From: a virus
Taxonomy: Duplodnaviria > Caudoviricetes
Reading direction: 5' to 3' (one strand)
DNA: 64,000 nucleotides
Virus record (IMG/VR): IMGVR_UViG_3300028854_000488
A program made the translations under genes and the position numbers. Positions 6,583-49,073 of this stretch are shown here, piece after piece. The notes under the pieces were generated by a model. The model did no database searches, was not told the DNA's origin, and saw only the letters and a list, made by a program, of their open reading frames with translations. Numbering within the stretch: position 1 is the stretch's first letter; every line of letters starts with the position of its first letter.

Positions 6583-7473
6583 ATGACAGCACAAGAAAAG
6601 AGAGATAAAATTTCAGAAGTAAAAAGAAAAATTGATGAAACTAAGGCTGAATACGATAGAGCAAAAGCTATGCAACTTGCATTAAAACTTGTAATTAATG
6701 GAACTTATGGTGCATTTGCACATCCAAAATTTGTATTATCAAATTCTCATATTGCAAATGCAATAACTGCTCAAGGACGTGATGTTATAAATTATATGCT
6801 TAAAAAGATTGAAACATATTTTTATAAAGAATGGCATTTAGACACAAAAACACATCAATTACTCGGACTTGAATATATTGCAGAAAAAGAAGGTAAATTT
6901 TATTTATTAGATAGAAATGGTGAAAATATACATTATACATATACATCAGTAGATAATATGTTAGAAAAATTAAATTATTATCGTGGTGATTTAGTTGAAG
7001 ATAAAAAAGAATTAAATGGATATAATGTATTATATAGTAGATTTGTTTGTGATTGTTCAAATGTAAAACCTATACCAAAAGATGTTCCAATAACAATTTA
7101 TGGTGATACTGATTCCGTTTTTTGTAAGACCATTATAAATACTAATGATGGATATTTTACAATAGAAGATTTATATAATAAAAATATTCAATATGGATCT
7201 GCTGGTGTAACATTAAATGGACATGTGTCAGTTAATTGCAAAGAACTTATTTTAAATTGGAATGAAGATAAAAAACTTTATTATGCGCCAGTTAAGAGAA
7301 TTATTAGGCATAAAGTTTCTAAACCTAAATGGAAATTAAAAACTAAATCTGGTGAGGAAATTATAGTAACTAATGATCATTCTATGATAGTTTTTAGAGA
7401 TAATAAAAAAATAGAAGTTAAACCATCAGAAATATTGAAAACAGATAAAATACTTTCAGTTAGAAAAATATGA
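6583..7473 (+). CDS. polB: Family B DNA polymerase fragment (motifs B and C) fused to the N-half of a split intein
   Basis: KLVINGTYG (motif B) and YGDTD|S, then intein blocks SVFCKT...IIVTNDHS, then stop. Confidence 0.9.
   Translation: MTAQEKRDKISEVKRKIDETKAEYDRAKAMQLALKLVINGTYGAFAHPKFVLSNSHIANAITAQGRDVINYMLKKIETYFYKEWHLDTKTHQLLGLEYIAEKEGKFYLLDRNGENIHYTYTSVDNMLEKLNYYRGDLVEDKKELNGYNVLYSRFVCDCSNVKPIPKDVPITIYGDTDSVFCKTIINTNDGYFTIEDLYNKNIQYGSAGVTLNGHVSVNCKELILNWNEDKKLYYAPVKRIIRHKVSKPKWKLKTKSGEEIIVTNDHSMIVFRDNKKIEVKPSEILKTDKILSVRKI
7114..7470 (+). mobile_element. Split intein N-fragment (119 aa, Ser1)
   Basis: Begins at Ser after YGDTD; block B TxxH (TNDH); ends at the ORF stop. Confidence 0.88.
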
Positions 7474-7512
7474 TATTTTAATATTTATATATAGAGATAA
7501 AAGTATTGCCAT

Positions 7513-8676
7513 ATGACAAAAAGAAAAAATAATTATGAATATAATAAAACTTGGATTACTTGGTTTAATAAAAATAAAACTAAGGAACTTTATAACTATG
7601 TTTTGATTAAAGAATTGCCAAATCATAGAAAATGCTTATATTGTGATGGTCCTATTTATTATTATGATTCGATATTTAGTATAGATAAAAATTATAATAT
7701 TTATCCTAATAAAAAGTCATACTTAACTAAAAAAACATTATTAGAAAAAGATTATACTCTATCAGTTTGTGAAGATTGTTTAATAGAAAAATATCCAGAA
7801 TATAACAATTTAAATAAAGGTAGAGTTTTTAATAGAATATGTGATATAACATGCTTTGCGTTTGATATACCTAATGATATTTCTGAGCAATGGAAAAAAC
7901 AAAATTATTCAATAACAGAAAAAACACTTATCAGCAAACATGGTGAAAAAAATGGTAAGGAAAAATGGAAAAACTATTGTGAAAAACAAGCAATAACAAA
8001 CACATTTGAATATAAGAAAGAAAAATATGGTTGGGATGAGAAAAAATTCGATGAATATAATCGTTCAAGGTCAATTACATTAAAAAATATCATTGAAAGA
8101 AACGGCGAAGAAAAAGGTTTAGAAATTTGGAATAATTATATCGATAGACAAAGATATACTTGTTCTTTAGAATATTTTATTTCACAATATGGTGAAATGA
8201 ATGGGATAGAAAAATTTGAAAATTTTGTAAATAAAAGATCATTTGAATTTGGATATTCAGATATTTCTCAAAAAATATTTGATGAATTAAAAAATAAGTT
8301 AGATAAGTTAAATGAGTATACATTATTTTATGCAACTAATAATAAGGAATATTATTTTGTTGATACTGTAAATAATATAACATATATGACAGATTTATTT
8401 ATTAAAGAGTTGAATTTGGTTATAGAATTTAATGGTGATAAATGGCACGCTAATCCTAAAATATTTTTTGAAAATGATATTCCTATATCATTTTTAAAAA
8501 ATCATAATAAACCTTATTTAGCTAAAGATATTTGGAAAAAAGATTACGATAAAATAAAATTTTTAAAAACAAAAGTCAGAGATGTTATTATAATATGGGA
8601 AAAAGATTTAAAAGAAAAAGGTATATTTAAAATTATTGAAGAAATAATTGAAAAAATTAAGGAGTTTGAAAAATGA
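7513..8676 (+). CDS. Free-standing Vsr/DUF559-like endonuclease inside the fractured polB locus
   Basis: DLFIKELNLVIEFNGDKWH and VIIIWEKD; CxxC pairs; KxGxExG repeats. Confidence 0.8.
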   Translation: MTKRKNNYEYNKTWITWFNKNKTKELYNYVLIKELPNHRKCLYCDGPIYYYDSIFSIDKNYNIYPNKKSYLTKKTLLEKDYTLSVCEDCLIEKYPEYNNLNKGRVFNRICDITCFAFDIPNDISEQWKKQNYSITEKTLISKHGEKNGKEKWKNYCEKQAITNTFEYKKEKYGWDEKKFDEYNRSRSITLKNIIERNGEEKGLEIWNNYIDRQRYTCSLEYFISQYGEMNGIEKFENFVNKRSFEFGYSDISQKIFDELKNKLDKLNEYTLFYATNNKEYYFVDTVNNITYMTDLFIKELNLVIEFNGDKWHANPKIFFENDIPISFLKNHNKPYLAKDIWKKDYDKIKFLKTKVRDVIIIWEKDLKEKGIFKIIEEIIEKIKEFEK

Positions 8677-9329
8677 AAAAATCAATTTTTATAAAAACTT
8701 ATGAAAAATTTAATAAGTCTAAATTGAATGATATTATAAAAAATGATGATACATATATTAAAAAAAAGTCAAAAGAAGGAGTTATAATATCTGACGATTA
8801 TATTGATATTAAAAATGAAATATCTAAATATGATGTAAGTAATTTTTATTATAAAAAGCATTCATATGGAATTTATATTAAACCAGATTTTTGGTTTATT
8901 GAGATTTTAAAAAAATTAAATTTAAAGATAGAAAATAAAATATCATTAGACTTGGAATTCGATTTTTCTGTTGATGAAACAAGATTAAATTTAATAGATT
9001 TTGAAAAAGGAATGCCAGTAAATTTAAAAGGATACACATTAGGATATAAATTATATAAATTGGTGATTTTAGATTTCGGTTTTATAACTTCAAATAAGTT
9101 TTCATCTTTAGATGCTTATAATATTTGGTATAATTTATTGCTGGATGATGATTTATATTCATTTACATCAAATAATTTATCAGGAGTGATTTCTAAAAAA
9201 TTATCTAATAATTATATTTTTGAAATTTTAGAAAAATTGAAATATGAAAATCTAAAATTTGATGATGAATTAATAGAAAAAATAAAAGAATTATATGGAA
9301 GTTTGGACATTTATACACAAAGAAACTAA
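8673..9329 (+). CDS. Hypothetical protein between the intein halves
   Basis: 218-aa ORF overlapping its neighbours. Confidence 0.75.
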   Translation: MKKSIFIKTYEKFNKSKLNDIIKNDDTYIKKKSKEGVIISDDYIDIKNEISKYDVSNFYYKKHSYGIYIKPDFWFIEILKKLNLKIENKISLDLEFDFSVDETRLNLIDFEKGMPVNLKGYTLGYKLYKLVILDFGFITSNKFSSLDAYNIWYNLLLDDDLYSFTSNNLSGVISKKLSNNYIFEILEKLKYENLKFDDELIEKIKELYGSLDIYTQRN

Positions 9330-9561
9330 TAAAATTATAAGATTTAATGTTATTTATAGTGATGATAGTGAATTTGGTACTGAATATTTATTTACAACTA
9401 ATAAATATTCTCCTATATGGTTTGTAGAAACTGAAGAAGAAGCTAAATTGGCTTATAGTGATTCAGTACATGCTCAATTTAGTATGTTCTATGATAGACC
9501 ATCAACAGATGATATTAATATAAATGAATTTGAAATAATAAAATTTGAAATAATAAAATAA
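9295..9561 (+). CDS. Hypothetical protein between the intein halves
   Basis: 88-aa ORF. Confidence 0.65.
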   Translation: MEVWTFIHKETNKIIRFNVIYSDDSEFGTEYLFTTNKYSPIWFVETEEEAKLAYSDSVHAQFSMFYDRPSTDDININEFEIIKFEIIK

Positions 9562-9566
9562 TTAAA

Positions 9567-9707
9567 ATGATAAATAATATAGAATACTATTTTGATGATA
9601 TAGAATCATGTGAAATGATAGGTGAATTTGAAGATGAATATGTTTATGATATCGAAGTTGATGATGAAACTCATACATTTATTGCTAATAATATATTAGT
9701 ACATAAC
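9567..9707 (+). mobile_element. Split intein C-fragment (47 aa, His-Asn terminus, Ser+1)
   Basis: Block F VYDIEV and block G THTFIANNILVHN followed by Ser. Confidence 0.9.
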
Positions 9708-10538
9708 TCACTTTATATTTCGTTCGCTCCTATGATAAAATCTGTTGGTTATACTGGAGATGAATTAGATTTTATTTTACATATTGATAGAGTATTTATT
9801 GAGAAATTATATAATGGTTGGTTAGATGAATATGCTGCTAAATACGGAGTTAAAAATATTCATAATTTTGAACTTGAAACAATTAATAGATCAGCTTTAC
9901 ATATTCAAAAGAAACATTATATTAATAACGTTGCTTGGGAAGATGGACTGTTTTATGAAAGTATGAGTTATTTTTATCCAAAAGGTGTCGAAATTGTTAA
10001 ATCATCAACTCCTCCATTTGTGAGAGAGAATATTTATGAGTTCTTACGATATATATTTGCTAATCCTAATAATTTGGATATTAGAAAGATTTTACTTATT
10101 GTTAAAGATTTGAAAAAACAGTTTATGATGGCGAATATTGAAGATATTAGTATGACATCAAGTTGTAGTAATTATCCTATTAAAGTTATTGATGATGTTA
10201 CAGATGTAGTGTGTGTTAAAGGTGCTCACTTTGCAGTTAAAGCCGCAGCATTACATAATTATTTATTAAATAAGAATTCAGAATATAAAACTAAATATGA
10301 TAATATAAGAGGAGGGCGTATAAAATATTTTTATTGTAATCATATTAAAAATCCAATATTCGCATATCAAAGGGGATTATATCCATATGAAATATGTGAA
10401 AAAGAAGGAGTTAAAATTGATTACGACGAACAATTTGACGTAACAATGTTGAGTATAATTAACAGATTCCTCGAACCAATTGGATTGCCTACAATTAATA
10501 AAAGATTGTCAGTATTAAATTCAATATTTACATTTTGA
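9567..10538 (+). CDS. polB: Split intein C-half fused to the C-terminal (palm/thumb) part of family B DNA polymerase
   Basis: VYDIEVDDETHTFIANNILVHN|SLYISF; then KKHY, KGVEIVKSSTP. Confidence 0.9.
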   Translation: MINNIEYYFDDIESCEMIGEFEDEYVYDIEVDDETHTFIANNILVHNSLYISFAPMIKSVGYTGDELDFILHIDRVFIEKLYNGWLDEYAAKYGVKNIHNFELETINRSALHIQKKHYINNVAWEDGLFYESMSYFYPKGVEIVKSSTPPFVRENIYEFLRYIFANPNNLDIRKILLIVKDLKKQFMMANIEDISMTSSCSNYPIKVIDDVTDVVCVKGAHFAVKAAALHNYLLNKNSEYKTKYDNIRGGRIKYFYCNHIKNPIFAYQRGLYPYEICEKEGVKIDYDEQFDVTMLSIINRFLEPIGLPTINKRLSVLNSIFTF

Positions 10539-43959: not shown

Positions 43960-44582
43960 ATGTTATCGTATTTATCATTTTTTTCAATTAATTTTTGAAT
44001 TTCATTTTTAAAACAATCTCTTGCTTTTTCATTTTCATTTTTATACATATTTATAAGCCTGATATATTCTGGTATAAAATAAATGTCAACTTGCCCATAT
44101 CCTAATCCACCACAAGTTAATTCTCCAATACAGTGTTTAAAGAATATACCTTTAGTCATATATGAAGATCCAAAAATTTCTATATTAAATTTATTATCAT
44201 CATAATCATTAAATTCTTGCTCACAATCATATTCACATTTTAATAATAACATTTTATCATAGTTATTATTGTAAGGTTTTCTTGTTTTATCTGGATTTTT
44301 TAAATAAATAAATTTTTTATTATTTAAAAATGCTAATTTTAATTTTCTTTTTAACTTTATTTTTTTATTTTCTGGGAGCCAACGATATTCGACCAAATCT
44401 GTACATTTAAAATCAATTGTTAATTTAATTCCAAATATAAATTTAGATAATATTGAAAATTCAGAATAATTTTGTGGTTTAGGAATATCTAATTCAAAAT
44501 TACAATGATCACATTTTAGTATAGTTTTTATAAATTCAGAATGTATTCCTATATTATTATATCTAGCCATTATTTTACTCAA
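43950..44582 (-). CDS. Hypothetical protein
   Basis: 210-aa ORF whose 3' end overlaps the tRNA-like 5' end. Confidence 0.7.
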   Translation of the reverse strand: MSKIMARYNNIGIHSEFIKTILKCDHCNFELDIPKPQNYSEFSILSKFIFGIKLTIDFKCTDLVEYRWLPENKKIKLKRKLKLAFLNNKKFIYLKNPDKTRKPYNNNYDKMLLLKCEYDCEQEFNDYDDNKFNIEIFGSSYMTKGIFFKHCIGELTCGGLGYGQVDIYFIPEYIRLINMYKNENEKARDCFKNEIQKLIEKNDKYDNMPM

Positions 44583-45075
44583 TAATATTGTTAATATTTA
44601 TTAATTTTTCTTTCATAGAACATCTATATTTATATTTTTTAACTCCTTCTATTTTATCATCTAAACACTGATCAATTAAATATTCAGATTGACGAATAAC
44701 ATATTCCTTATTACAATTTTCTTTATTATCTCCATAATGACTAGTATCAAAACCTATCATCCAATAATTATTGAATTTTTCATAATTATCTAATGTTACA
44801 TCTCCATCAATTGATAATCCGTCAATCCATTTTAAAAATGAATCTGAATTAAAAAGTTGTCCGTATGTTAATCCACCATGAACTCTTATATCATTTATAT
44901 CATCATATGGTTTTTTATATAATGGATGATTAGTAGGTAATAATATATAACCATTTCCCCATCCAAATTCTAACATAGAAGGATATAAACTAAATAATGA
45001 TAAATGTTTAACTAAATAATTTTCAATTACTAATGTGTAAATTCCGTATTTCATTTTATATTTTATTAAAAACAA
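44575..45075 (-). CDS. Conserved-looking phage hypothetical protein
   Basis: GWGNGY...HP...VHGGLTY...IGFDTSH. Confidence 0.7.
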   Translation of the reverse strand: MFLIKYKMKYGIYTLVIENYLVKHLSLFSLYPSMLEFGWGNGYILLPTNHPLYKKPYDDINDIRVHGGLTYGQLFNSDSFLKWIDGLSIDGDVTLDNYEKFNNYWMIGFDTSHYGDNKENCNKEYVIRQSEYLIDQCLDDKIEGVKKYKYRCSMKEKLININNIIE

Positions 45076-45123
45076 AGATACTATTTTTTTATTAATTAAC
45101 CAAATAAATAATTAAAATATTTT

Positions 45124-45747
45124 TTAACTTTTTCCTGATATATTATCAACATTTTCTTGAATTTTATCAACATTTTCTTGTATATCATCAGTGCGAGTTT
45201 TTACGAAATTATCATTCTCTTTTACATTCTCTGTTATGTTATTAACATTTTTTTGTATATTATCAATATCAGTTTGAATATTTTTATCATTTTTGTCAAC
45301 ATTTTCCTGAATATCATCAACATTTTCCTGAATATCATCAACATTCTTTTTTATTTTATTATCTGTTTTTTCAACATCAATTTTTATATCATCAACATCT
45401 TTTTCGATATAGTCAACATCTTTTTCAATATCATCAACTTCAGTTTTAATATTTTCTGTCATTCCTTCTATTTTTTCAGATAATTCTTCAATTTTTTTAA
45501 TTATACTATCAGTCCTTTCTCCACTTATTTTAGCAATATAACCCAAAACTGGTAACGCTACACCTTGAAAAAATACGGAAACTATATATTGCATCCATGC
45601 AACTGGTCCTGAAGGCTGACTGAAAAATAATGGTATTATAACTAATAATGTTATTATCCAAAACATAGCCATACTAGATAATGAATTTGATAATATAACT
45701 GCTAAACCTTCTTGTAATGATTCAAATTTTTGTAACAATTTCTTCAT
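45124..45747 (-). CDS. Membrane protein (DUF1003-like N-terminus) with heptad-repeat coiled coil
   Basis: Two TM helices, then (V)DDIQEN 7-aa repeats. Confidence 0.7.
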   Translation of the reverse strand: MKKLLQKFESLQEGLAVILSNSLSSMAMFWIITLLVIIPLFFSQPSGPVAWMQYIVSVFFQGVALPVLGYIAKISGERTDSIIKKIEELSEKIEGMTENIKTEVDDIEKDVDYIEKDVDDIKIDVEKTDNKIKKNVDDIQENVDDIQENVDKNDKNIQTDIDNIQKNVNNITENVKENDNFVKTRTDDIQENVDKIQENVDNISGKS

Positions 45748-45802
45748 ACTACTTTTTATCTTTATATATAAAAAATGTATAATAAATTATTTGTAAAATT
45801 AG

Positions 45803-45885
45803 TGGACTGAGAGGGATTCGAACCCACAAGCTCCGAAGAGAACGCATTTACAGTGCGGCGAGCCAACCAACTGCTCAATCAATCC
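45803..45885 (-). tRNA. tRNA-Tyr(GTA)
   Basis: Anticodon loop CTGTAAA, long variable arm, GGTTCGAATCC. Confidence 0.9.
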
Positions 45886-45890
45886 ATTTG

Positions 45891-45963
45891 TACTCCCAGT
45901 AGGCATTGAACCTACATGACGTGCTTATAAGGCGCGCATACTTACCAATTATATGATAGGAGC
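45891..45963 (-). tRNA. tRNA-Ile(TAT)
   Basis: Anticodon loop CTTATAA; GTAGG-TTCAATG-CCTAC T arm. Confidence 0.85.
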
Positions 45964-45972
45964 ATTATTTAG

Positions 45973-46046
45973 TAGTCTCGGTGAGACTTGAACTCACGAT
46001 TTATTGCTTATCAGGCAATTGCTCTAACCAACTGAACTACAAGACT
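45973..46046 (-). tRNA. tRNA-Ile(GAT)
   Basis: Canonical cloverleaf, loop CTGATAA. Confidence 0.92.
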
Positions 46047-46113
46047 ATATAAGTTTATTTTTATTAATCATAACATACTATTAGTATGATAATAGTCACA
46101 ATTATAAACTATG

Positions 46114-46183
46114 TACCGAATATGATGTTCGAAATCATTTGGATTTCCTTATGAGAGAAATCTCTTTTCCACTAAGCTTCGGC
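46114..46183 (-). tRNA. Degenerate tRNA with CAT anticodon (Met or Ile2)
   Basis: Loop CTCATAA, T arm ATGAT-TTCGAAC-ATCAT; weak D arm. Confidence 0.6.
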
Positions 46184-46196
46184 ATTATGTTTATTG

Positions 46197-46270
46197 AGGC
46201 CAAGGTGGGACTCGAACCCACACAATATAGTTTTGCAGACTATCCCCTTATTCCATTCGGGCACTCGGTC
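46197..46270 (-). tRNA. tRNA-Cys(GCA)
   Basis: Loop CTGCAAA, U73 discriminator. Confidence 0.9.
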
Positions 46271-46278
46271 ATTTTTTG

Positions 46279-46350
46279 CGGGAGTGAGGAATCACGATAT
46301 CCTAACCTACTGGTTAACAGCCAGTTGCTCTGCCTTTGAGCTACATTCCC
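46279..46350 (-). tRNA. tRNA-Asn(GTT) with non-canonical T loop
   Basis: Loop CTGTTAA, G73; T loop ATCGTGA. Confidence 0.8.
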
Positions 46351-46361
46351 ATATATTTTTG

Positions 46362-46436
46362 CTGGAATAGTTGGATTCGAACCAATAACCCTCACTTTAA
46401 CAAAGTGCCGCTCTAACCGTTAAGAGCTACATTCCA
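46362..46436 (-). tRNA. tRNA-Asn(GTT)
   Basis: Loop TTGTTAA, G73, canonical T loop. Confidence 0.88.
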
Positions 46437-46444
46437 ATAATAAG

Positions 46445-46519
46445 CGGACTATAACGGTTACGGTCCGTTAATTTTACTTGAGTGACGGTCAAGTTCTCCA
46501 CCAAGGAGCCTAATAATCC
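46445..46519 (-). tRNA. tRNA-Asp(GTC) with non-canonical T loop
   Basis: CTTGA-CCGTCAC-TCAAG; T arm AACGG-ACCGTAA-CCGTT; G73. Confidence 0.75.
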
Positions 46520-46525
46520 ATTTTT

Positions 46526-46600
46526 TGGTACTGATTAAGAGAGTTGAACTCTTCTTGGCAGGTTGAAAACCTGTAGTCCTAACCGATAGACGAAACCAGC
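46526..46600 (-). tRNA. tRNA-Glu(TTC) with encoded CCA
   Basis: Loop TTTTCAA; ends ...AATCAGT-A-CCA. Confidence 0.9.
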
Positions 46601-46614
46601 ATTAATTTATTTTG

Positions 46615-46760
46615 TGAGATGGAGGGGATTCGAACCAATTGTAATAACTTCTGTGCTTTTCATGTACACTTATTACACATATCTTAATACGTTTATTTAC
46701 CTCATTCCTTAGACACCTGGGTCCATCCCAGGCTGGCTTCACCACAACCATAGCCACCTC
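46615..46760 (-). ncRNA. 146-nt tRNA-like RNA of unknown type
   Basis: Closed 7-bp acceptor-like stem GAGGTGG/CCATCTC + A; GGTTCGAATCC; extra internal hairpins. Confidence 0.55.
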
Positions 46761-46785
46761 ATATTTATTTATTCATTATCCAGTA

Positions 46786-46797
46786 TTTCAAAGAGCA
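46786..46797 (-). promoter_or_regulatory. boxA-like antitermination element TGCTCTTTGAAA
   Basis: Resembles the rrn boxA consensus; lies between the attenuator and the first RNA gene. Confidence 0.55.
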
Positions 46798-46800
46798 TTT

Positions 46801-46845
46801 AAAAACAAAAAACTCAGTTCTTATTTTTAAGAACTGAGTTTTTTT
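46801..46845 (-). terminator. Attenuator terminator upstream of the main tRNA array
   Basis: Minus strand: AAAAAACTCAGTTCTTA-AAAA-TAAGAACTGAGTTTTTT-GTTTTT. Confidence 0.85.
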
Positions 46846-46871
46846 ATTATTCACATAATAATTTTTTTAAC

Positions 46872-47003
46872 TTATCCAGTTCTTCGTACAATATTTTCAT
46901 CATCATTAATATAATCATTATTCATATTAATACATATCTCTTCCATATTGTAATTAATGTTACAATTGCGATAAATGCGATATATGTTATTCATGTTATT
47001 CAT
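46872..47003 (-). CDS. 43-aa attenuator leader peptide (not in the ORF track)
   Basis: MNNMNNIYRIYRNCNINYNMEEICINMNNDYINDDENIVRRTG*; its 3' end is complementary to the terminator 5' arm. Confidence 0.85.
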   Translation of the reverse strand: MNNMNNIYRIYRNCNINYNMEEICINMNNDYINDDENIVRRTG

Positions 47004-47035
47004 AATGTTTACTTTTTTAATTTATTGTTTTTTGT

Positions 47036-47725
47036 TTATTTAAAATTCTTTATTATTCCTGATATTGTGGATTTTGAACAATCTAATAACTTAGAAATGT
47101 CTATTTGTCTTACTCCATCAATATATAATTTTTTAACAACTTCTTTATCTATTTTACTAGACATTTTTTTAAATTTTAATGATTTGTTTTTTATTAGTTC
47201 ATAATTATTATTAAAAAAATCAACATCAGAATGTTCAATTGTATGACAATTTGCACATAATATTTGACATTTATTTAATTCTTCTATTATTTCTATTCTT
47301 ATCTCTTCTATGGAAGAAATATTTTCTTTGACAAATCTAAATTCAAAATTTTTATCTTTTAAATGATGAAAATGTAATGCACTTGTTGTATTATTATATC
47401 CACATTTTTCACATCCTTTTACATTTTTATATTCTAAGAATATTTTTTTATCATTTGTTCTATATGTCTTAGGTTTATCATGAAACTCATAATGACAATT
47501 TTGACATAATAACTCACATTTTTCAACTTCTTTGAATATATTTTTCCAATTTTTACCCCACATACGAGATAATCTATATTCTTTATCTTCAGAATTCGTA
47601 TGATGAAAACATAATTTAAAAAAATTAGTTTCTCCACATTTTTTACATTTACCTCCTAAAAAATTTATTGCTTTTAATTTTTTAGCAAATCTTAAAATTT
47701 TAGTACTATACATTTTATCTGTCAT
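47036..47725 (-). CDS. Tandem double-HNH endonuclease inserted in the tRNA region
   Basis: Two CxxCG...FHH...ExxKCxLLCxNCH units; C-terminal HTH-like segment. Confidence 0.85.
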   Translation of the reverse strand: MTDKMYSTKILRFAKKLKAINFLGGKCKKCGETNFFKLCFHHTNSEDKEYRLSRMWGKNWKNIFKEVEKCELLCQNCHYEFHDKPKTYRTNDKKIFLEYKNVKGCEKCGYNNTTSALHFHHLKDKNFEFRFVKENISSIEEIRIEIIEELNKCQILCANCHTIEHSDVDFFNNNYELIKNKSLKFKKMSSKIDKEVVKKLYIDGVRQIDISKLLDCSKSTISGIIKNFK

Positions 47726-47740
47726 AGTTCAACTTTTTAT

Positions 47741-47752
47741 TTTATATATAAA
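47741..47752 (-). promoter_or_regulatory. Recurrent TTTATATATA(A/C) motif, putative phage late promoter
   Basis: Found ~5-35 nt upstream of many ORFs (e.g. 2066, 14141, 16998, 21381, 31251, 47725, 58351). Confidence 0.5.
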
Positions 47753-47801
47753 TATAAAATAATGAACTTTTTATAAAATGTATAATTTTTTATTTATTTG
47801 T

Positions 47802-47870
47802 TGCGTGGAGGTAGATTCGAACTCCTACTTCAGCTTATGAGACTGATATGTTACCATTACAATATCCCGC
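47802..47870 (-). tRNA. Degenerate tRNA-Met(CAT)
   Basis: TCAGT-CTCATAA-GCTGA; bulged acceptor stem and imperfect T stem. Confidence 0.6.
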
Positions 47871-47884
47871 ATTTTTTATTATTG

Positions 47885-47955
47885 TTGCGATCGTAGGATT
47901 CGGACCTCGTTTCAGGGTTATGAGCCCTATATGCTGCCATTGCATCACCATCGCG
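47885..47955 (-). tRNA. Initiator-type tRNA-fMet(CAT)
   Basis: C1:A72 mismatch and GGG/CCC anticodon stem; T loop TCCGAAT. Confidence 0.75.
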
Positions 47956-47962
47956 ATATATT

Positions 47963-48352
47963 TTAATTTTTTTCTTTATCAATTTTTTTATAGAGTTTTT
48001 TAGCAATTTCTTTTGCTTTTGAACTCATACCTTTTTCTGTTTTAGGAACTTCTTTATCGTCAATTTTGATTTTATCAGCAAACATTATAAATTTTTCAGT
48101 TCTATCAGATTTTCTTTTCAGTTCATCGTAATTTTCTTGAATTTTATTTACTACTTTTACTGACTCATCAATTTTTTTTTCTTTACTTTTAATTTCGTTA
48201 TAATAATTTTGAATATTTATTATTTCTTCTTTAACGCTTTGATGTCTTTCAACATTTTTTTCTTTTTTACGTTTTTTTTCTTCTTTTATATTTTGAAGTT
48301 TACTATTTTCTATTTTTTTATCTTCTAATAATTTCTTAACAAATTTATTCAT
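47963..48352 (-). CDS. Lys/Glu-rich coiled-coil hypothetical protein
   Basis: Likely start MNKFVKK directly after the attenuator U-tract. Confidence 0.65.
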   Translation of the reverse strand: MNKFVKKLLEDKKIENSKLQNIKEEKKRKKEKNVERHQSVKEEIINIQNYYNEIKSKEKKIDESVKVVNKIQENYDELKRKSDRTEKFIMFADKIKIDDKEVPKTEKGMSSKAKEIAKKLYKKIDKEKN

Positions 48353-48385
48353 AAAAAAACCAGTCATTTTTTAATGACTGGTTTT
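48353..48385 (-). terminator. Second attenuator terminator
   Basis: Minus strand: AAAACCAGTCATT-AAAA-AATGACTGGTTTTTTT. Confidence 0.8.
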
Positions 48386-48414
48386 GTATAATTTTAGGCA
48401 TATAAGCCTGAATT

Positions 48415-48468
48415 TTAAATTCCAGTCAATTGTGATGTATCATCATTAATGATATTTTCGTTACACAT
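48415..48468 (-). CDS. 17-aa attenuator leader peptide (not in the ORF track)
   Basis: MCNENIINDDTSQLTGI*; TGACTGG near its end is complementary to the terminator 5' arm CCAGTCA. Confidence 0.7.
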   Translation of the reverse strand: MCNENIINDDTSQLTGI

Positions 48469-48576
48469 TTCTATATATAAATTTTGATACATTTTGTTTT
48501 CTTTTTTATTTTTTTTTTAGTCTTTCTTATATATAATAGAAAAAAAGTCATTTTTTTCTATTTTTAATTTGTAGTA

Positions 48577-48584
48577 CAAAAGTA
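48577..48584 (-). promoter_or_regulatory. Bacteroidota-type -7 element TACTTTTG upstream of the first leader
   Basis: TAnnTTTG match. Confidence 0.5.
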
Positions 48585-48686
48585 ATACAAAGTTTTTAAT
48601 CTACCAAATGTTTTTAAACTTATTTAAAAAATAACCTTTCTTTTCAGTGAAGAAAAAAAAGGTTTAGTTTTTATACTTTTTAATTT

Positions 48687-48866
48687 TTACAACGAAACTT
48701 CTTCTTTTTTCATTGTATAAAATGTAAGTCCACCTTTTTCTTTTCCAACACCAGGTACAGTCATAAAATTATTAAAATTTACACTTTTTTTTACTGAATG
48801 ATATTCATTTTTAGTCAAAAAGAAAACTTTTGCTGATTTAGATGAATTTTCTGAATTTGTTGTCAT
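48687..48866 (-). CDS. 59-aa hypothetical protein (not in the ORF track)
   Basis: MTTNSENSSKSAKVFFLTKNEYHSVK...EEVSL*, downstream of TACATTTG at 48915-48922. Confidence 0.55.
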   Translation of the reverse strand: MTTNSENSSKSAKVFFLTKNEYHSVKKSVNFNNFMTVPGVGKEKGGLTFYTMKKEEVSL

Positions 48867-49073
48867 AATAGTTGAATTTAAATTGTTTAAATGTTTGTTG
48901 TTTTAATTACACTACAAATGTACTTCGAATACTTTTATGTACCAAATATTTAATTTGTTTTTATTATTCTTTATAATAATTTGTATATATTTCACATTTA
49001 GAATATAATTAAACTATAAAAATACTAATAATTAAAAAAATATAATAATATATACTCAAAAATAATATAGATT

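Follow-up and report, generated by a model that had tools for sequence, protein, structure and literature searches.

We analyzed a 64,000-nucleotide (nt) stretch of DNA from a virus of the Caudoviricetes (IMG/VR record IMGVR_UViG_3300028854_000488). The whole stretch is called the window here, and all positions refer to it unless another sequence is named. On its minus strand, a small open reading frame (ORF) at 47003-46872 precedes an array of transfer RNA (tRNA) genes, and we conclude that this ORF probably encodes the leader peptide of a ribosome-mediated attenuator, which would control transcription of the tRNA array in a giant phage of Bacteroidota-like hosts. The conclusion is supported by the elements that we found, their conservation, the coding signature of the ORF, the match between leader and array, and the alternative RNA pairings. 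From these features of the sequence we infer that the leader is translated, that its translation is coupled to transcription, in which direction the switch works and what triggers it physiologically. An initial annotation of this DNA had described the ORF, a small hairpin, an intrinsic terminator and, at the end of the ORF, a strand able to pair with the terminator 5′ arm. All of these are present on the minus strand, where the ORF carries a copy of the terminator 3′ arm, and the elements of this module, here called module 1, are as follows.

47003-46872, minus strand: module 1 leader ORF, 43 codons and a TAA stop, with sensing codons 2-36
46884-46869, minus strand: antiterminator 5′ strand, AAGAACTG-GATA-AGTT, which spans the last codons and the stop and pairs with 46844-46829
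46861-46844, minus strand: small hairpin (7 bp, GTGA loop) that the antiterminator encloses
46844-46801, minus strand: intrinsic terminator with 17 pairs (46844-46807), 4 of them G-C, and then a T run
46600-45802, minus strand: tRNA array of Glu(TTC), Asp(GTC)-like, Asn(GTT) twice, Cys(GCA), CAU-like, Ile(GAT), Ile(TAT) and Tyr(GTA)

The G+C content of the window is about 22%, and its long ORFs are rich in K, I, N, L, E and S. Codons 1-38 of the leader are drawn solely from M, N, I, Y, R, C, E and D, as the initial annotation had noticed, and codons for K, F, W, S and H do not occur in the leader at all (0/42). We rejected the idea of a chance ORF, because the 38-codon run is unique among the 333 window ORFs of at least 30 amino acids, where the next longest run is 13. 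In the sensing zone, which consists of the codons at which a stalled ribosome leaves the antiterminator strand free, 33 of the 35 codons specify amino acids of the array, compared with a background of 0.43 (binomial 1e-10). A Pfam search with the module 1 peptide gave no family match.

Five natural versions of the module 1 leader were available, namely those of the window and of loci L019, L024, L048 and L051. The indels among them measure 3, 3 and 15 nt within the ORF, and all are in frame. Module A, a second leader in the same operon, differs from its relatives by two in-frame insertions of 6 nt that add N, E, N and I. Taking the two leaders together, the indels inside the ORFs are 3, 3, 6, 6 and 15 nt long and those just outside are 1-2 nt long. 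Replacements in the sensing zone of module 1 remain within the amino-acid set (M/I, N/D, N/I and an added N), with the exception of codon 9 (Arg/Ser). Such in-frame indels and composition-keeping substitutions would be the signature of a reading frame that is selected for its composition rather than its sequence, and they argue indirectly for translation of the leader. The terminator stem is identical in all five versions, and in L051 one A-U pair of the small hairpin is changed to G-C, which is a compensatory change.

Leaders and arrays in fifteen modules

Proteins of the window match exactly on the 244,678-bp ENA metagenome contig k141_297629, and near-identical contigs occur in several JGI samples. 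Along this contig we reached L012, a second tRNA array that this genome carries 25.6 kb ahead of the window. The closest GenBank phages are the huge phages LR756501-LR756504, of which LR756501 and LR756504 have genomes of 735 kb and 636 kb. Loci of relatives were retrieved through a conserved 5′ hairpin of the tRNA operons (described below), which identified 11 IMG/VR contigs including one of 330 kb (G001), and through one metagenome scan, which added further leader variants. A degenerate pattern of the leader's first codons had no match in IMG/VR, blastn of 46780-47010 against GenBank phages returned nothing, a search with the HNH protein encoded upstream of the leader retrieved only a single distant locus, and blastn with the Lys/Phe/Trp module gave just short matches, in LR756502 and Lak-C1. 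The comparison covers 15 modules from four phage genomes: module 1, module A, L012, a Gln module of G001 (in locus L028), and eleven modules from LR756501 and LR756504. Two of the leaders are located as follows.

L012 18965-19072: leader of 35 codons, of which codons 5-18 are only S, K, H, F and W, located after a promoter and the 5′ hairpin
L028 1068-1121: leader of the Gln module in the relative G001, 17 codons including CAG CAA CAA CAA CAA

Leader composition clearly co-varies with the downstream anticodons in related arrays, a relationship that the initial annotation had put forward as a check of its proposal. The 15 leaders are unrelated peptides that carry differing amino-acid sets, each of which matches its own array. 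The summed z score of the leaders for their own arrays was 61.9, compared with a mean of 1.7, a standard deviation of 7.4 and a maximum of 36.7 among permutations, none of which reached the observed value (0/100,000), and the own array was top-ranked for 11 of the 15 leaders. Within the genome of the window, the L012 leader is followed by a terminator and then by tRNAs for Lys, Phe, Trp, Ser, Ser and His, and its composition is disjoint from that of the module 1 leader (Fisher 9e-11). The Gln leader precedes four tRNA-Gln genes (ttg, ttg, ctg, ttg), and its stop codon lies inside the antiterminator strand. LR756501 has TPAPAVAFRRGTGTGTGT before an Arg/Ala/Thr/Val/Gly/Pro array, a Leu-rich leader before five tRNA-Leu genes, and a leader of I, M, Q and E before Glu/Met/Gln/Ile. 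In LR756504, IAIVEIAVIGGAEEG stands before Glu/Ala/Ile/Val/Gly, KKQQYKQYQPQYK before Tyr/Gln/Lys, IAMIIRMRIIR before Arg/Ile/Met, LSLCLSLSLSL before Leu/Ser/Cys, and FWHFHF before His/Phe. At the level of isoacceptors, CAA and CAG both occur in the Gln leader, just as ttg and ctg both occur among the genes of its array. Of the 16 anticodon species of L036, 12 have a Watson-Crick codon in the leader; these codons include GCG, GGG, ACG and CCC, which would be expected to be rare in DNA so rich in A+T.

We also compared the grouping of tRNAs between L031-L036 of LR756501, the window and L012. The groups are alike in these distant huge phages, namely Ile/Cys/Asp/Asn/Tyr, Lys/Phe/Trp/Ser/His, Arg/Ala/Thr/Val/Gly/Pro, Leu alone, and Gln with Met and Glu. 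This similarity suggests that the groups may be old, conserved regulatory units. No leader was seen near two odd tRNAs of L029, where the head of the array may lie further upstream. In addition, L037 (LR756501 690585-690737) contains two tRNAs with CTA anticodons, that is, amber suppressors that ARAGORN labels as Pyl, with no evident leader upstream; these tRNAs fit stop-codon recoding in LR756501.

Alternative pairings and the probable direction of the switch

In module 1, the strand whose partner is the terminator 5′ arm is AAGAACUG, and the antiterminator duplex has a calculated energy of about -10.5 to -11 kcal/mol. The pairing between the leader and the terminator 5′ arm, as proposed in the initial annotation, is better than that of shuffled sequences (p 0.01-0.03 for module 1 alone). 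A search for terminator-like sites in 44500-49000 found 7, compared with 0.9 expected from shuffles. Rfam at E <= 1 over the same region identified tRNAs only, with no T-box or other known cis-regulator.

We folded the nascent RNA at the stage at which the terminator 5′ arm has been made and the 3′ arm has not yet been made, with a 29-nt mask for the ribosome. When the A site was placed at codons 1-36 of module 1, the antiterminator formed, and 13 nt of the 5′ arm were paired upstream. When it was placed at codon 37 through the stop (37-44), the antiterminator was broken, and 5-7 nt were paired. This is the behavior that the initial annotation had anticipated, in which a ribosome that reaches the stop covers the antiterminator strand. 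In module A, the antiterminator formed when the A site was placed anywhere up to codon 18, and it was lost from codon 19 to the stop.

The mechanism that we propose would operate as follows. RNA polymerase starting from a promoter at about 48600 would transcribe the leader, and a ribosome would load onto it. If the Asn, Ile, Tyr, Met, Glu, Asp and Cys codons are read fast, then the ribosome would arrive at codons 37-44 or the stop and mask AAGAACUGGAUAAGUU, the part of the leader that it covers at these positions. The terminator 5′ arm would then join its own 3′ arm, and transcription would end at 46807-46801. If any matched codon is slow because the charged tRNA is scarce, then the ribosome would lag, and the 3′ end of the leader would pair with the 5′ arm around the GUGA hairpin. 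With this antiterminator formed, polymerase would continue into the genes for Glu, Asp, Asn, Asn, Cys, CAU, Ile, Ile and Tyr. The output would restore the input, so that the module would provide a many-input negative feedback on tRNA supply. Module 1 would be one of a set, with a similarly designed attenuator first in the operon (48492-48353) and other arrays preceded by leaders in their own amino acids.

The same geometry was examined across the modules. An intrinsic terminator lies between leader and tRNAs in every one of them, and the complementarity between the leader's 3′ part and the terminator 5′ arm exceeds that of shuffles in 15/15 (p <= 0.034 each, most <= 0.01). In all 15, the enriched codons lie in the zone in which the antiterminator is free, and their run ends where the blocking zone starts. 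The antiterminator pairing also shows covariation, another check set by the initial annotation: the L012 and L034 leaders both keep Phe-Gly, with TTT GGA in one replaced by TTC GGG in the other, and the 5′ arm changes from TCCAAA to CCCCGAA.

Several observations weigh against this interpretation. The initial annotation had the leader sense exactly the tRNAs encoded downstream; the match falls short of this, in that the leader has two CGC Arg codons and the array proper has no tRNA-Arg, and codon 9 is Ser in three variants (L019, L024 and L046/L049) and Arg in the window, L048/L050 and L051. The CAU element of the array (46183-46114) scored 22.5 bits in Rfam, under the cut-off of 29. No leader was found within 420 nt upstream of the first tRNA in L032, L035, L037, L040 and L042, which include arrays of LR756501 and LR756504; the heads of these arrays may lie further upstream. 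The minimum-energy fold of the complete RNA always contains the terminator, and the switch would thus have to be kinetic, as it is in classical attenuators. In ribosome-free module 1 RNA, the antiterminator forms and there is no hairpin of the 1:2 (anti-antiterminator) type, and therefore an untranslated leader would read through by default, unlike that of trp. An upstream 1:2 hairpin is typical of trp and his, though it is not necessary for attenuation. In nine modules (e.g., L012), 5-11 codons follow the antiterminator strand and a ribosome at the stop no longer covers it; the simple picture of a ribosome at the stop fails there, and timing or upstream pairing would be needed. Finally, leader-peptide attenuation requires close coupling of transcription and translation, which we assume for the host.

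Some of these points would suit a different logic for the same parts, in which efficient decoding gives read-through and a stall near the antiterminator strand gives termination, or in which ribosome loading or release decides. The antiterminator re-forms after the ribosome reaches the stop in the nine modules just mentioned, and in the ribosome-free fold it forms in 12 of the 15 modules, with termination by default in the Gln module and L043. Moreover, the sensing codons reach the antiterminator strand, so that a ribosome halted at one of the final 3-4 would cover the strand. However, the stop codon lies in or beside this strand in module 1, module A, the Gln module, L033 and L038b, which is the classical geometry in which fast translation gives termination. 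Most matched codons lie at such a distance upstream that a ribosome stalled on them does not mask the strand, and positive feedback on tRNA supply would have no obvious use. We consider this logic unlikely.

It is also conceivable that the attenuators work as we propose and that their main selected role is counter-defence, that is, to sense the loss of host tRNAs to anticodon nucleases and then to express phage copies that resist these nucleases. Cleavage of tRNAs would be registered by a leader that monitors decoding speed, and among the arrays are genes for Lys, Tyr, Asn, Asp, His and Arg, whose tRNAs are frequent nuclease targets. However, leaders are found on arrays for nearly all amino acids, which general homeostasis fits better, and in a phage of 22% G+C this role is not distinguishable here from plain supply-and-demand control. 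Counter-defence seems quite unlikely to be the main role. Phage tRNAs have been proposed as replacements for host tRNAs that are cut by anticodon nucleases (PMC10264068), in a paper that does not treat the regulation of phage tRNAs.

Very improbable is the view that the small ORF is no sensor but encodes a small protein acting on its own, or belongs to an untranslated RNA of odd composition, and that the hairpin is the terminator of the upstream gene: the terminator does also follow an HNH gene in this genome and some leader tails are conserved at the peptide level, but relatives without the HNH gene retain the ORF, hairpin and terminator before the tRNAs, the conserved tails coincide with the antiterminator strand, the peptide had no Pfam match, and the 15 unrelated peptides share only the rule that leader amino acids equal array amino acids.

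The operon and its RNAs

The module 1 leader is internal to a longer operon, a point that the initial annotation missed. The order is promoter-like site, 5′ hairpin, module A, 134-amino-acid ORF, two tRNA-Met genes, HNH/HTH gene, module 1, an RNA of 150 nt, and the array. The elements outside those already listed are given below, together with an RNA that lies beyond the array.

48608-48577, minus strand: Bacteroidota-type promoter-like site (TTTG, 20 nt, TAnnTTTG) at the operon head, read from the sequence
48561-48536, minus strand: conserved 5′ hairpin with a 10-bp A/T stem and a TGAC loop, between the promoter-like site and the first leader
48492-48415, minus strand: module A leader ORF of 25 codons, the first leader of the operon
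48409-48396, minus strand: module A small hairpin, from folding
about 48385-48353, with a T run to 48350, minus strand: module A intrinsic terminator, from a terminator scan and folding
48367-47963, minus strand: Lys-rich ORF of 134 amino acids between the first attenuator and the Met tRNAs, without a Pfam match
47955-47802, minus strand: two tRNA-Met (CAT) genes, with Rfam scores of 41.3 and 35 bits, found by ARAGORN at a lowered threshold
47725-47036, minus strand: homing-endonuclease gene with HNH and HTH domains, Pfam HTH_23 and HNH both scoring just below the cut-offs
46797-46786, minus strand: boxA-like word TGCTCTTTGAAA directly after the module 1 terminator, by sequence resemblance
46757-46605, minus strand: tRNA-like RNA, about 150 nt long, whose gene is the first to follow the terminator, with ends that fold as an acceptor-like stem
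43959-43880, minus strand: Arg(ACG)-like RNA, 1.9 kb beyond the array and past protein genes

The promoter-like 20-mer TTTGGTAGNTTNAAAACTTT occurs once in the window; further copies stand in relatives and ahead of the Lys/Phe/Trp/Ser/His array of this genome. The 5′ hairpin likewise has one copy in the window, compared with 0.01 expected. Exact copies stand at the head of tRNA operons in the 11 IMG/VR contigs, and near copies are found in LR756501 arrays. The hairpin (A run, TGAC, T run) is near-invariant across distantly related huge phages, as seen in the window (48536-48561), L012 (18889-18914), L031, L034 and L036, and it could be a processing, pausing or protein-binding site. In module A, 15 of the 17 codons from 2 to 18 are taken from M, E, D, N, C, I and Y, and the tail contains TGACTGG, which is complementary to the terminator 5′ arm.

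We considered whether the module 1 terminator is part of the HNH gene and rejected this possibility. In relatives that do not have the HNH gene, the leader follows directly after tRNA-Met and is kept with its hairpin and terminator before the tRNAs, so that the endonuclease gene is an insertion and the terminator is not its own. HNH/HTH genes also lie inside tRNA arrays elsewhere, namely in the second array of this genome (L012 20024-20749) and in LR756501 and LR756504 (L001 and L002), in addition to the window copy at 47036-47725. This distribution suggests that there may be a homing endonuclease family that targets tRNA arrays.

Words similar to the boxA-like word follow the terminators of L019, L024, L033, L036 and L051, though they are not found in every module. 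Every attenuator terminator with a spacer ahead of the first tRNA is followed by such a word, as TGCTCTTTGAAA, TGTTCTTTAACA, AGTTCTTTGACA and AGTTCTTTAAAA in the window, L033, L036 and L051, and these words may signal Nus-type processive antitermination after the decision.

Two metatranscriptome runs, from peat and permafrost, contain 5-9% of the sampled words, and most of the matching contigs are A-rich and of low complexity. The exact contigs cover 48029-48334 only, plus one 66-nt piece over part of the leader, and reveal neither ends, strand nor level. The covered stretch lies in the 134-amino-acid ORF, for which it is weak evidence, and the gaps in coverage carry no information.

For the array, the initial annotation had listed the tRNAs given above and an Arg(ACG)-like RNA further on. 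ARAGORN calls Glu, both Asn, Cys, Ile(GAT), Ile(TAT) and Tyr, but not the Asp, CAU or Arg(ACG)-like elements. The Asp(GTC) element (46521-46440) folds into a cloverleaf and is near-identical to a tRNA-Asp that ARAGORN calls in a relative. A relative retains the Arg(ACG)-like RNA, with an Rfam score of 29.5 bits there; ARAGORN, with its mitochondrial mode included, gave no call for it. It has an ACG anticodon loop and no regular D arm, and it overlaps the stop of the ORF at 44582-43950. In the 330-kb relative, a U.G acceptor pair of this RNA is changed to U-A, and the flanks have diverged. Unusual T loops or arms are seen in several tRNAs of the array (46440-46521 and 46279-46350). The T loop of Asp(GTC) is ACCGTAA, and this tRNA is missed or scored low by ARAGORN and Rfam.

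The RNA of about 150 nt contains the T-loop GGTTCGAATCC and internal GGCT/AGCC and CCTGGG/CCCAGG hairpins. It received no call from Rfam or ARAGORN and has no exact match in IMG/VR. In L019, its position is occupied by an ARAGORN-called tRNA-Tyr(GTA). In L024, where ARAGORN makes no call, and in L051, we read by eye a Tyr(GTA)-like element of tRNA length at this position.

Two further observations concern other parts of this genome. At L012 17490-17690, about 27 kb before the window and upstream of the Lys/Phe/Trp array, there is a lone tRNA gene whose halves are about 130 nt apart; the A+T-rich insert is possibly an intron. The DNA polymerase B gene at 6583-10538 of the window carries an intein-splicing domain, according to Pfam matches on identical genes.

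Relation to known attenuation systems

The evidence that can be read from these genomes supports a known mechanism class, represented by trpL, hisL, leuL, pheL and the multivalent ilv and thr leaders, that is applied here to tRNA genes, and we found no published account of such a use. The initial annotation knew of no description of attenuation on a phage tRNA array, and our full-text literature searches likewise found none; neither for phages nor for cells did they yield a report of tRNA genes under attenuation control. Leaders, attenuation and terminators also go unmentioned in the paper that described LR756501-LR756504.

Beyond module 1, we lean towards the view that huge phages run a modular tRNA homeostat. 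Each array would be an independently attenuated unit whose leader samples the isoacceptors that follow, down to rare codons like GCG, GGG or CAG, and serial attenuators would top up decoding capacity that is depleted by infection, codon mismatch or host anticodon nucleases. If this is true, then tRNA genes would be a new class of attenuation-controlled genes, and the leaders would offer a direct read-out of the tRNAs that limit phage translation, naming array by array those that the phage treats as limiting. Such a system bears on two old questions, namely the reason why phages have tRNA genes at all and the means, other than growth-rate control, by which tRNA genes are regulated. A leader that spells its array makes both testable: the phage would gauge the decoding speed of set codons and answer with the matching tRNAs. 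The reach of classical attenuation would be widened to include stable-RNA genes, switches with up to seven inputs, attenuators in series within one operon, and hosts of the Bacteroidota type. The design is detectable from sequence, and it could improve the annotation of phage tRNA operons and provide compact codon-specific sensors for synthetic biology.

The closest parallels are drawn from several known systems. As in trpL, hisL, leuL, pheL and thrL of enterobacteria, a short codon-enriched ORF is followed by an intrinsic terminator and then by the regulated genes, and the antiterminator strand lies at the 3′ end of the ORF, where a ribosome near the stop would mask it. The Gln module has the textbook trpL-type layout, with five Gln codons, a stop inside region 2, and 2:3 and 3:4 pairings. 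Unlike these leaders, the phage modules would regulate tRNAs and not enzymes, so that the signal, the supply of charged tRNA, would be restored by the tRNA itself. Most phage leaders also mix 3-7 amino acids, and module 1 has no 1:2 hairpin and would read through by default when free of ribosomes. The modules are phage-borne, can be internal to an operon and occur in series. The integration of several amino acids by one leader resembles that of the ilvGMEDA (Ile/Leu/Val) and thr (Thr/Ile) leaders, but those combine 2-3 amino acids of one pathway, whereas here up to 7 are combined and the set is determined only by the tRNA genes that follow. The boxA/Nus antitermination of rRNA-tRNA operons shares with module 1 only the boxA-like word, a resemblance in sequence that does not extend to every module. 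The pheST attenuator (pheM) and T-box riboswitches likewise use transcription attenuation to tune the decoding machinery to tRNA charging. However, pheM controls a synthetase and the phage leader would control tRNAs, and a T-box binds uncharged tRNA directly, without a ribosome or an ORF, whereas the phage switch would depend on a ribosome translating its leader.

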